A stretch of 14,395 nt of DNA, taken from a virus. Lineage: Duplodnaviria > Heunggongvirae > Uroviricota > Caudoviricetes. Location of the stretch: the IMG/VR virus record IMGVR_UViG_2671180986_000005. One strand, 5' to 3'. Under the pieces are notes generated by a model. The model was not told the origin of the DNA, did not search any database, and was given only the letters and a program-made list of their open reading frames with translations. Numbering within the stretch: position 1 is the stretch's first letter; each line of letters opens with the position of its first letter. A program made the translations under genes and the position numbers. Positions 4,344-13,486 of the stretch are shown one piece after another.

Positions 4344-4918
4344 CGCTTTATTACCATTCTCAGTTGATGCTGCAGCGCATAGCCCAGCTCTTTCGGAAGA
4401 CGTTCACGCCGTATCCGTTCAATATTCTGTTTAAACGCCGTGGTCAGCGGCACCGCCATCGGGATTTTCACCACATCAATGGGGTAACGGTTTTTCCCGG
4501 CCACACGCTGCATAACATGCCACCGGCCGTTTTTCAGTTGCTGAATAAACGCGCCGGGAATACGACGGTTACCCACCACAAGCACGCTGCCGCCNNNNNN
4601 NNNNNNNNNNNNNNNNNNNNNNNNNNNNNNNNNNNNNNNNNNNNNNNNNNNNNNNNNNNNNNNNNNNNNNNNNNNNNNNNNNNNNNNNNNNNNNNNNNNN
4701 NNNNNNNNNNNNNNNNNNNNNNNNNNNNNNNNNNNNNNNNNNNNNNNNNNNNNNNNNNNNNNNNNNNNNNNNNNNNNNNNNNNNNNNNNNNNNNNNNNNN
4801 NNNNNNNNNNNNNNNNNNNNNNNNNNNNNNNNNNNNNNNNNNNNNNNNNNNNNNNNNNNNNNNNNNNNNNNNNNNNNNNNNNNNNNNNNNNNNNNNNNNN
4901 NNNNNNNNNNNNNNNNNN
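4340..4918 (-). CDS. Z: tail completion protein gpZ; start lies in masked block, start coordinate estimated from lambda length (192 aa)
   Basis: Unmasked C-terminal ~84 aa (...[80 protein letters not shown]); stop at 4340-4342 overlaps the U start. Confidence 0.75.
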   Translation of the reverse strand, partial: XXXXXXXXXXXXXXXXXXXXXXXXXXXXXXXXXXXXXXXXXXXXXXXXXXXXXXXXXXXXXXXXXXXXXXXXXXXXXXXXXXXXXXXXXXXXXXXXXXXXXXXXXXXXGGSVLVVGNRRIPGAFIQQLKNGRWHVMQRVAGKNRYPIDVVKIPMAVPLTTAFKQNIERIRRERLPKELGYALQHQLRMVIKR

Positions 4919-5070
4919 NNNNNNNNNNNNNNNNNNNNNNNNNNNNNNNNNNNNNNNNNNNNNNNNNNNNNNNNNNNNNNNNNNNNNNNNNNNNNNNNNN
5001 NNNNNNNNNNNNNNNNNNNNNNNNNNNNNNNNNNNNNNNNNNNNNNNNNNNNNNNNNNNNNNNNNNNNNN

Positions 5071-5424
5071 NNNNNNNNNNNNNNNNNNNNNNNNNNNNNN
5101 NNNNNNNNNNNNNNNNNNNNNNNAACTTCCGCCATCATCCGGCGAAACCCGATCTACCCAGAAATTTTCCTCACCGATGGTCAGCGTGTCTCCACGCCGC
5201 AGCTGCCGCACCTCATCAGTCCGGACAAACAGGGACGGGCTGGAGCCTTCAACGCGCACGCCCTGTCCGGCATAGCTGATATTTTCAGGGTCATCAAAAA
5301 CACCACGTATCACCGCACCTGACTGCTCACCGGATGTCATGGTGGCTGACGTTCCCATGTACCCGCGTATCGTTTCATCGGCGCGGGCAATGGCAGCATC
5401 GAACAGGTTATCGAAATCAGCCAC
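5071..5424 (-). CDS. FII: head-tail joining protein gpFII; 3' end lies in masked block, end coordinate estimated from lambda length (117 aa)
   Basis: Unmasked N-terminal 100 aa MADFDNLFDAAIARADETIRGYMGTSA...VDRVSPDDGGS; ATG at 5424, 11 nt after the FI stop as in lambda. Confidence 0.8.
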
Positions 5425-6956: not shown

Positions 6957-7289
6957 TTAAACGATGCTGATTGCCGTTCCGGCAAACGCGGTCCGTTTTT
7001 TCGTCTCGTCGCTGGCAGCCTCCGGCCAGAGCACATCCTCATAACGGAACGTGCCGGACTTGTAGAACGTCAGTGTGGTGCTGGTCTGGTCAGCAGCAAC
7101 CGCAAGAATGCCAACGGCAGCACCGTCGGTGGTGCCATCCCACGCAACCAGCTTACGGGTGGAGGTGTCCAGCATCAGCGGGGTCATTGCAGGCGCTTTC
7201 GCACTCAATCCGCCGGGCGCGGTTGCGGTATGAGCCGGGTCACTATTGCCCAGCGGCTGGTAATGGGNNNNNNNNNNNNNNNNNNNNNN
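6957..7289 (-). CDS. D: head decoration protein gpD; first ~7 codons lie in masked block, start estimated from 110-aa lambda length
   Basis: Unmasked portion reads ...[82 protein letters not shown]; stop at 6957-6959; 56-nt gap to the E start as in lambda. Confidence 0.85.
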
Positions 7290-7298
7290 NNNNNNNNN

Positions 7299-7941
7299 NN
7301 NNNNNNNNNNNNNNNNNNNNNNNNNNNNNNNNNNNNNNNNNNNNNNNNNNNNNNNNNNNNNNNNNNNNNNNNNNNNNNNNNNNNNNNNNNNNNNNNNNNN
7401 NNNNNNNNNNNNNNNNNNNNNNNNNNNNNNNNNNNNNNNNNNNNNNNNNNNNNNNNNNNNNNNNNNNNNNNNNNNNNNNNNNNNNNNNNNNNNNNNNNNN
7501 NNNNNNNNNNNNNNNNNNNNNNNNNNNNNNNNNNNNNNNNNNNNNNNNNNNNNNNNNNNNNNNNNNNNNNNNNNNNNNNNNNNNNNNNNNNNNNNNNNNN
7601 NNNNNNNNNNNNNNNNNNNNNNNNNNNNNNNNNNNNNNNNNNNNNNNNNNNNNCGTCGCTTGCACCACGCCAGTAACGTCAGCCTGCGAAGCAGTGGCTG
7701 AAACAGTTGTTGATTGAGTCTCTTTGGTCATTCGCCCTCCTGAGAGACGGGATTTACGTGCATCCAGTGCATCACGCATGACGGTGATCGCATCGGTACT
7801 GTTAACAAGTTCATCAGCCAGTCCGGCATCAATGGCCTCCTGACCGCTGTACACTGCAGCCTCGGTATCCAGCACAGCCTGCACGGACAGGCCGGTATAT
7901 GCCGACACCTTCTGTGCAAACATCCGGCGGGTTGCATCCAT
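7299..7941 (-). CDS. nu3: scaffolding protein Nu3, internal in-frame start within the C reading frame (position inferred from lambda Nu3 offset)
   Basis: In-frame Met (MDATRRMFAQKVSAYTGLSV...) at the position corresponding to the lambda Nu3 start as I recall it; the C-terminal part is masked. Confidence 0.45.
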
Positions 7942-8346: not shown

Positions 8347-8616
8347 CCCCGAGTACGGCTGACCAGCGTGCCGGACACCGGCAGCACGGCGATGCCGTTC
8401 ATTACCTGATAACTGCGGGCCTGTCGTGGTCCGTCATCATCACCGGATAACGCCAGCGCCGCGGGTGCCTCTCCGGCAGTCAGGCTGTCGCCGGATACTG
8501 CATCCGTCAGGCAGCTGATCCCAAGCTGGCCTGCAAGCGCACAAAAGAAAACCCGCGCATAGGCGGGTTCAAGCATCAGCGGCTCATTAAAAGCCNNNNN
8601 NNNNNNNNNNNNNNNN

Positions 8617-8636
<20 letters not shown>
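8343..8636 (-). CDS. C: gpC N-terminal fragment upstream of the frameshift; start in masked block, estimated
   Basis: Unmasked ...AFNEPLMLEPAYARVFFCALAGQLGISCLTDAVSGDSLTAGEAPAALALSGDDDGPRQARSYQVMNGIAVLPVSGTLVSRTRG then TGA at 8343-8345, overlapping the ATG of the downstream fragment (ATGA). Confidence 0.7.
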
Positions 8637-12380
<3,744 letters not shown>

Positions 12381-12406
<26 letters not shown>

Positions 12407-12926
12407 TCAGCAACCCCGGTATCAGTTCATCCAGCGCGGCTGCTTTGTTCATGGCTTTGATGATATCCCGTTTCAGGAAATCAACATGTCGGTTTTCCAG
12501 TTCCGGAAAACGCCGCTGCACCGACAGGGGGATCCCGTCGAGAATACTGGCAATTTCACCTGCGATCCGCGACAGCACGAAAGTACAGAATGCGGTTTCC
12601 ACCACTTCAGCGGAGTCTCTGGCATTTTTCAGCTCCTGTGCGTCGGCCTGCGCACGCGTAAGTCGATGGCGTTCGTACTCAATAGTCCCTGGCTGGAGAT
12701 CTGTCTCGCTGGCCTGCCGCAGTTCTTCAACTTCCCGGCGCAGCTTTTCGTTCTCAATTTCAGCATCCCTTTCGGCATACCATCTTATAACGGCGGCAGA
12801 GTCATAAAGCACCTCATTACCCTTGCCACCGCCTCGCAGAACGGGCATTCCCTGTTCCTGCCAGTTCTGAATGGTACGGATACTCGCACCGAAAATGTCA
12901 GCCAGCTGCTTTTTGTTGACTTCCAT
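12381..12926 (-). CDS. nu1: terminase small subunit gpNu1 (winged-HTH cosB-binding)
   Basis: 181-aa ORF MEVNKKQLADIFGASIRTIQNWQEQGMPVLRGGGKGNEVLYDSAAVIRWYAERDAEIENEKL...; N-terminal HTH; located directly downstream of cosB. Confidence 0.95.
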
Positions 12927-13103
12927 TGTTCATTCCACGGACAAAAACAGAGAAAGGAAACGACAGAGGCCAAAAAGCCCGTTTTCAGCACCTGTCGTTT
13001 CCTTTCTTTTCAGGGGGTGTTTTAAATAAAAACATTAGGTTACGGCGAAGAAGAACGGAAACGCCTTAAACCGGAAAATTGTCATAAATAGCGAAAACCC
13101 GCG
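12927..13103 (-). promoter_or_regulatory. cosB: terminase Nu1-binding region with three R elements (core CGTTTCC), two in one orientation and one inverted
   Basis: Core GGAAACG/CGTTTCC occurs three times between cosN and the Nu1 ATG: about 12952-12966 (aggaaacgacag), about 12991-13006 (ctgtcgtttcctttc, inverted) and about 13053-13065 (gaacggaaacgcc). Arrangement as lambda R1, R2, R3. Confidence 0.65.
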
Positions 13104-13115
13104 CGCCTTCCGCCC
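13104..13115 (-). other. cosN (terminase nicking site, 12-nt cohesive-end sequence) with cosQ-side flank to about 13150
   Basis: Minus strand reads ...gatccgacaggttac GGGGCGGAAGGCG CGCGGGTTTTCGCTATTTATGA...; flanks on both sides match the lambda right end / left end junction as I recall it. Coordinates are within 1-2 nt. Confidence 0.7.
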
Positions 13116-13150
13116 CGTAACCTGTCGGATCGCCGGAAAGGACCCGCAAA

Positions 13151-13253
13151 ATGATAATAATTATCATCTACATGTCACAACGTGCATCTACGCCATCAAA
13201 CCACGTCAAATAATCAATTATGACGCAGGTATCGTATTAATTGATCTGCATCA
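13151..13253. repeat. cos-flank element copy 1 (~105 bp), begins with 17-bp palindrome ATGATAATAATTATCAT; runs into masked block
   Basis: Direct repeat with copy 2; last ~60 bp nearly identical (cgccatcaaaccacg..aaataatcaattatgacgcaggtatcgtattaattgatctgcatca). Reverse complement resembles the last ~110 bp of the lambda genome as I recall it. Confidence 0.7.
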
Positions 13254-13376
13254 NNNNNNNNNNNNNNNNNNNNNNNNNNNNNNNNNNNNNNNNNNNNNNN
13301 NNNNNNNNNNNNNNNNNNNNNNNNNNNNNNNNNNNNNNNNNNNNNNNNNNNNNNNNNNNNNNNNNNNNNNNACGAA

Positions 13377-13486
13377 ATGATAATTATTATCATCTATATA
13401 AGGTTTATCACAACATGTGTGTACGCCATCAAACCACGAGAAATAATCAATTATGACGCAGGTATCGTATTAATTGATCTGCATCA
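13377..13486. repeat. cos-flank element copy 2, begins with palindrome ATGATAATTATTATCAT
   Basis: About 85 percent identical to copy 1 with small indels in the middle; preceded by masked block 13254-13371. Confidence 0.7.

Follow-up and report, generated by a model that had tools for sequence, protein, structure and literature searches.

The stretch of viral DNA analysed here (IMG/VR record IMGVR_UViG_2671180986_000005, 14,395 nucleotides; hereafter the window) raises the question of whether a cos site with five substitutions in its cohesive end is a natural variant of the lambda site or a damaged one. On the minus strand, upstream of Nu1, the site reads ...GGGTCCTTTCCGGCGATCCGACAGGTTACG–GGGCGGAAGGCG–CGCGGGTTTTCGCTATTTATG..., where the central segment is the cosN 12-mer. 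Direct reading and alignment with lambda/DE3, 2H10, Turner, PhiR70_1 and an Stx1 phage gave GGGCGGCGACCT as its lambda counterpart. With G1 at 13115 and G12 at 13104, the changes relative to lambda are 7 C>A, 8 G>A, 9 A>G, 10 C>G and 12 T>G. The left half (GGGCGG) and C11 are the same in both, and the right half reads AAGGCG as compared with CGACCT in lambda. The first-pass annotation had placed this difference within 13098–13120, an interval that contains the 12-mer, and had described it as affecting the 3′ half of cosN between conserved flanks. This description holds, all five changes lying in positions 7–12 with the flanks unchanged. Its lambda sequence also proved right: the DE3/lambda phage records carry GGGCGGCGACCT between flanks identical to those of the window. 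The raw minus strand was checked again for an exact match to the lambda allele, and the five differences stood.

The surroundings of cosN follow the lambda plan (Table 1). We take the heptamer GGGTCCT to be cosQ, which in lambda reads GGGTCCT at about bp 48473–48479. Two 16-mers (12993–13008 and 12950–12965) are presumably R2 and R1, as in lambda. The alignment of the window with lambda/DE3 is gap-free from cosQ to Nu1, and the distance from cosN to the Nu1 start codon is unchanged. The 12-bp segment is bounded by CG steps on both sides (ACG–GGGCGGAAGGCG–CGC), positions 1–6 are identical to lambda, and cosQ lies at the lambda spacing. R3 falls at bp 50–65 counted from the first cohesive-end base, with the cosN–cosB spacing of lambda, and this position matches its published definition (PMC9026076). 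The GC content of the overhang, 10 of 12, equals that of lambda. In the 16-bp core, 8 of 16 bp show twofold symmetry, fewer than the 10 of 16 in lambda cosN, where the flanking CG steps are conserved (PMC9026076, PMC4669245). The nicks are placed by homology with lambda and would fall at these CG steps. A further substitution, A>C at 13081 (bp 35 of the phage left end, between cosN and R3; ATGACAATTTTCC vs ATGAAAATTTTCC), was absent from the other cos sites displayed and leaves the cosN-to-R3 spacing unaffected.

Table 1. Features of the cos region and the adjoining terminase genes in the window.
Feature	Position	Strand	Basis or remark
cosN cohesive-end 12-mer GGGCGGAAGGCG	13104..13115	-	direct reading; alignment; same 12-mer in PhiR46_1, YDC107_1 and E. 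coli loci
16-bp cosN core with CG dinucleotides flanking both presumed nick sites (ACG^GGG..., ...GCG^CGC)	13102..13117	-	
Presumed cosQ heptamer GGGTCCT, packaging termination signal	13139..13145	-	distance to cosN as in lambda
cosB R3, critical TerS binding site AGGCGTTTCCGTTCTT	13051..13066	-	identical to lambda
Remainder of cosB	12950..13008	-	presumed R2 12993–13008 and R1 12950–12965; both identical to lambda in alignment
Nu1/TerS	12381..12926	-	181 aa, full length; Pfam Phage_Nu1, E 2.4e-101
gpA/TerL	10481..12406	-	641 aa, full length; Pfam GpA_ATPase and GpA_nuclease (ATPase and endonuclease domains)

The minus strand of the window encodes a lambda-like head and tail block. Next to cos lie the genes of a Nu1-family TerS and a gpA-family TerL, of the same Pfam families as those of lambda, and the block also includes W, the portal, an S49 protease, D (decoration), E (major capsid), FI, U, the tail tube V, G, T and part of the tape measure gene. 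By every criterion that can be tested on sequence, the site is a lambda-type cos. We consider it highly probable that it is functional and carries a naturally occurring alternative cohesive-end allele. Nicking at the homologous positions with normal efficiency would be expected under this reading.

The allele recurs far beyond the window. The exact 32-mer in the lambda flank context was found in 14 IMG/VR contigs, and the variant 12-mer occupied 27 of the 187 cos sites tabulated (among the matches listed), a table shaped by the search patterns and showing which alleles exist, not their frequencies. Allele frequencies were taken from probes of complete E. coli genomes. A 44-mer variant probe, in which every 28-base seed must span variant bases, matched 166 places in 155 of the 5426 genomes; the matching lambda-allele probe matched 8144 places in 4288 genomes. 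The variant therefore makes up about 2% of the lambda-type cos sites in E. coli. The species-representative genomes yielded one match, in Escherichia sp. E1V33. The homology of that locus to the window (L206, NZ_RHJI01000023.1, ~2702–2760) spans TerL, TerS, cosB and cosN and ends exactly at cosQ; the sequence upstream of cosQ is unrelated to the window, marking cos as a module boundary.

Plasmids are a preferred location of the allele. In PLSDB it was present in 23 plasmid records, of ~46 kb and non-mobilizable, whose hosts are E. coli, E. fergusonii, E. albertii and Shigella sonnei. Plasmids accounted for 16 of the 166 variant places as compared with 20 of the 8144 lambda-allele places (odds ratio 43, p = 1.6e-18). 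Among the variant-bearing plasmids, those inspected or of matching size belong to the N15-like phage-plasmids and have lambda-type head genes. The variant cosN is also carried by two deposited phage genomes, PhiR46_1 (PV340565) and YDC107_1 (CP025712). Both are N15-like phage-plasmids, and YDC107_1 is classified in Ravinvirus. In these phages and in plasmids such as pEC21Z151-46K, the cosN 12-mer and the cosB side are identical to the window. The PhiR46_1 genome, examined in full, contains telL/telR, ParAB and a primase, along with complete lambda-type lysis, terminase, head, tail and fibre genes. Its record belongs to the PhiR/PV3405xx series and gives E. coli ECOR13 as the host. The PhiR phages are a lambda-related temperate panel used in plaque assays, attributed to Brenes & Laub 2025. 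PhiR46_1 as an infectious phage rests on its GenBank record, with the ECOR13 host and the complete gene set, and on the use of the panel in plaque assays. The Nature 2026 paper in which the panel was used does not mention PhiR46_1, and a literature search by PhiR phage name and accession returned nothing relevant. The allele itself is present unremarked in GenBank phage records and has no description that we found in the searchable literature, where a full text search with GGGCGGAAGGCG and its reverse complement returned only unrelated plant and Streptomyces papers.

Tolerance of the cosN right half to mutation is documented. According to Feiss et al. 2015 (PMC4669245), which summarises Xu & Feiss 1991 and Hang et al. 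2001, mutations at bp 7–12 have a minimal effect, with no measurable change in cos cleavage. The G2C mutation cuts the yield ~10-fold, and the symmetric C11G has no effect. This asymmetry is attributed there to the closeness of the right half to cosB: TerL is anchored through the TerS–R3 contact, which makes bottom-strand nicking insensitive to sequence (PMC4669245). According to the authors, cosQ and the left half are under selection and positions 7–12 are not (PMC4669245). The premise of the first-pass annotation, that nicking depends on cosN sequence and symmetry, is thus contradicted for positions 7–12.

Natural right-half variants are also known, namely N15 and phiD326 (positions 9 and 12) and Gifsy-1 (positions 8, 9 and 11) (PMC4669245). 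The comparison with other lambdoid cos sites that the first-pass annotation had suggested places the window allele among such variants. Its differences are likewise confined to positions 7–12, with the CG steps and the left half unchanged, and comparative sequence points to no need for a matched terminase. The N15/phiD326 cosN, read as GGGCGGCGTCCG, shares G12 and the unchanged left half with the window allele, and lambda TerL uses the N15 site equally well (PMC4669245). The precedent for G12, in N15, is thus validated by experiment. A7 has a counterpart in PhiR70_1, for which the host is given as E. coli C. The N15 cosN has two differences from lambda beside a single-R cosB (CGCAGATTCTCGC...), whereas the window has five beside a lambda-type cosB and differs from the N15 allele at positions 7, 8, 9 and 10. 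Gifsy-1, a Salmonella phage, is set apart by its published description, with other positions and another host genus. The window allele is neither that of lambda nor that of N15, and is more divergent than the described variants (five differences vs two or three). The published tests span one to three changes, not five together, and 10 C>G is without a tested precedent.

With these data, a mechanism can be proposed. TerS (Nu1) would bind cosB through R3 and the other R sites, as in lambda, and the bound TerS would position TerL (gpA), so that the two strands are nicked 12 bp apart at the conserved CG steps. The resulting virion DNA would have GGGCGGAAGGCG and CGCCTTCCGCCC as its 5′ overhangs. 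All five changes lie in the cosB-proximal half, where bottom-strand nicking would be driven by cosB anchoring and not by the local sequence; positions 7–12 would therefore be weakly constrained and free to drift. The loss of symmetry would fall on the side where the sequence matters least. Because the two ends of the packaged chromosome come from the same duplex site, they would be complementary whatever the 12-mer, and cyclisation would be unaffected. The allele is probably old and divergent, and recombination at cos or beside it may have carried it from one cos background to another.

The distribution of alleles and flanks bears on this last step. The variant was found on four cosQ-side haplotypes (13116–13126 in the window) that differ 3–9 bases from the nick (GACAGGTTACG, GGCAGGCTACG, GGCAGGTTACG and GACAGACTACG, among the matches listed). 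The window has GACAGGTTACG, which is typical of integrated lambda-like prophages, in contrast to the GGCAGGCTACG flank of the linear or plasmid N15-like prophages of the PhiR46_1 and YDC107_1 type. The two main haplotypes carry the lambda allele too, and all four combinations of allele and haplotype exist within ~20 bp. The nearest relative by flanking sequence and closest complete genome, E. coli OkiPb01680 (L193), carries the lambda allele, and was 98.95% identical to 9071–13253 of the window over 4183 ungapped bases. Five of its 44 mismatches sit within 6 bases at cosN, a clustering far beyond chance: when the 44 mismatches were placed at random 20,000 times, five in six never occurred. The haplotype combinations suggest recurrent allele exchange at cos itself. 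Such exchange near the nick sites matches a route demonstrated by Feiss et al. for a 2-base mismatch: after cutting at two different cos alleles, the chromosome closes into a circle whose 12 cohesive-end bases form a heteroduplex, and both types appear among the progeny (PMC4669245). The same route may have moved the present allele.

An N15-type cosB context was considered as the origin of the allele and found no direct support: of 11 such contexts, 10 had GGGCGGCGTCCG and one had the lambda allele. The allele is connected to N15-like elements through phage-plasmids with a lambda-type cosB. One IMG/VR contig (L204, IMGVR_UViG_2166559024_000004, cos ~10167) combines an N15-like cosB and cosQ-side flank with the lambda allele GGGCGGCGACCT, and appears to be another case of a cosN allele swapped between backgrounds.

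Free neutrality of positions 7–12 would predict many intermediates; the alleles seen are few and discrete, with the lambda allele at ~98%, which counts against it. In the lambda flank context, IMG/VR contained no other allele with a non-A base at position 9 and no stepwise intermediates, and the variant is not a single step away from the lambda allele. Related alleles among the cos sites tabulated are GGGCGTCAGGCG and GGGCGTCAGACG, one of which lies in the cos of a satellite-like island. They suggest a small divergent group with the endings ...AGGCG or ...AGACG. In the loci with these two alleles (L167, L184, L183 and L138), and in L090 with GGGCGACGACCT, position 6 is also changed (G>T or G>A); this position belongs to the left half, which is reported as under selection (PMC4669245).

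The absence of a continuum would fit an explanation in which right-half alleles are selected compatibility types, kept as mutually non-annealing ends that penalise hybrid chromosomes from mixed concatemers or tandem polylysogens. A 2-base end mismatch lowers the yield of viable phage about fourfold (PMC4669245), and five mismatches should be much worse. Each cosB family has its dominant allele, and E. coli genomes with several lambdoid cos sites are common, the maximum being 8 places in one genome. If this explanation were true, gene flow between co-resident lambdoid phages would be limited. However, drift in long-separated lineages with occasional transfer gives the same pattern, the existence of all allele and flank-haplotype combinations means that any barrier is leaky, and the allele is rare (~2%). 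We regard selection of this kind as improbable. A broader version gives the right half a role beyond neutrality, with discrete non-annealing types forming compatibility groups among lambdoid phages, phage-plasmids and cos satellites and spreading by cos-specific exchange. This is an outside chance in our estimation; the types would be lambda CGACCT, N15 CGTCCG, and the AAGGCG type with its CAGGCG and CAGACG relatives. In such a scheme, a chromosome cut at two cos alleles would form a heteroduplex in exactly the 12 bases, from which both alleles would segregate.

The first-pass annotation had left two options, a variant cohesive end or a damaged cos in a prophage that cannot package. The former is supported: the allele recurs in hundreds of independent elements whose terminase genes are intact, and deposited phage genomes carry it too. 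The latter found no support. It would imply a right half decayed in a defective prophage, which the terminase could no longer cut. Five substitutions in six bases of an essential site and a symmetry down to 8/16 bp could be read in this way. The window, moreover, is a gapped draft from which the integrity of the prophage is not demonstrable, and the phage collection, searched for records beginning at the variant 12-mer as a sign of the physical ends, contained none. Decay would scatter, though, and cosQ, the CG steps, the left half, R3, R2, R1 and the terminase genes are all untouched around the five changes, a pattern that looks unlike mutational decay. The identical 12-mer in at least 155 complete E. 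coli genomes, 23 plasmids and two deposited phages speaks against damage, as does the published tolerance of right-half changes (PMC4669245). Among loci with enough downstream sequence, the terminase genes were intact more often beside the variant than beside the lambda-type site (TerS in 22/23 vs 105/129, TerL in 17/18 vs 58/84). Damage is thus very unlikely.

A co-evolved switch of specificity, in which the variant cosN needs a matching TerL nuclease and the lambda-type terminase cannot use it, would agree with the premise of sequence-dependent nicking and with discrete alleles lacking intermediates. Suppressors of cosN G2C are said to map in gpA, in work ascribed to Arens et al. 1999, and this was also counted in its favor. 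We compared 137 TerS and 79 TerL proteins from the 187 cos sites in the fetched loci (among the matches listed). Identical TerS proteins adjoin both alleles, one TerS sequence pairing with seven lambda-type and five variant sites. All 16 variant-linked TerLs are within 1–5 residues of some lambda-allele-linked TerL, and the TerL of the window differs from that of a locus with a lambda-type cosN (L033) by one residue, I459V. The TerLs of the window and PhiR46_1 are 99.4% identical, and their four differences (residues 9, 21, 151 and 185) all lie outside the nuclease domain (322–600), which is identical in the two. No TerL alignment column was diagnostic of the allele, the best-associated one reaching 81% vs 23%. 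Co-variation of the terminase with the cosN allele was rejected on these grounds. Its absence speaks against a nuclease specificity that evolved together with cosN and is consistent with the anchoring model. Lambda and lambda–N15 hybrid terminases give the same burst on cosN-lambda and cosN-N15, without cosN specificity (PMC4669245). A specificity switch is accordingly rated as hardly credible.

An artefact of the draft assembly, with a stretch mis-joined or mis-called by a scaffold gap, could be suspected from the seven N-runs and from a gap 140 bases away flanked by overlapping, non-identical contig ends, but is refuted as practically impossible, because many independent assemblies share the exact sequence together with long identical flanks, among them long-read complete genomes, plasmids and phage records of unrelated origin.

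The functional reading with an alternative allele has several consequences. The phenomenon and its mechanism are already explained by published work, to which the allele adds a divergent case of known variation. It is the most divergent natural right-half allele found (five of six bases), and its terminase is essentially that found beside the lambda allele. This pairing amounts to a natural experiment in support of the model of Feiss et al., in which cosB anchoring and not the local sequence directs bottom-strand nicking. Annotation of cos by the exact 12-mer GGGCGGCGACCT misses ~2% of lambda-type sites in E. coli and a far larger share on N15-like phage-plasmids. In cloning, cos vectors or cosmids with one allele should not anneal to the ends of the other. 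The sharp allele boundaries, and the occurrence of the allele on several flank haplotypes, are a hint that alleles are exchanged at cos itself, which would be of some interest for phage evolution if confirmed.

The state of the assembly deserves separate mention. N-runs occupy 759–1207, 1254–1626, 1639–1842, 4595–5123, 7268–7653, 8596–9070 and 13254–13371. The window is a scaffolded draft, since the N-run lengths disagree with a related complete genome (386 N vs 349 bases, 475 vs 412 and 529 vs 390). Open reading frames across the gaps, such as a '564 aa' portal and a split S49 protease, are artefacts and were excluded from the analysis. The stretches 13149–13253 and 13375–13486 form a direct repeat, 92% identical, on the two sides of the N-run 13254–13371. 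The repeated sequence lies just upstream of cosQ and is single copy in related complete genomes. It looks like the overlapping contig ends of two different lambdoid prophages, and the upstream region to which the scaffold connects cos may be the wrong one. A second cos hidden in this N-run was considered; a scaffold gap with overlapping contig ends is the simpler reading, as complete genomes of relatives show collinearity and one copy. A true duplication, or a partial second cos beneath the Ns, would be less likely.

A last observation concerns E. coli APEC E14033 (L138, NZ_CP126948.1, locus 26146–38447). Its prophage carries the variant cosN, and an island of ~11 kb interrupts the major capsid gene of this prophage. 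This island has genes for an integrase, a primase, and major capsid and decoration proteins of its own, as well as its own cos at about 35560, where the allele GGGCGTCAGGCG lies beside an N15-resembling cosB side (CGCAGATTCTTGC). It looks like a capsid-encoding, PICI-like satellite inside its potential helper.
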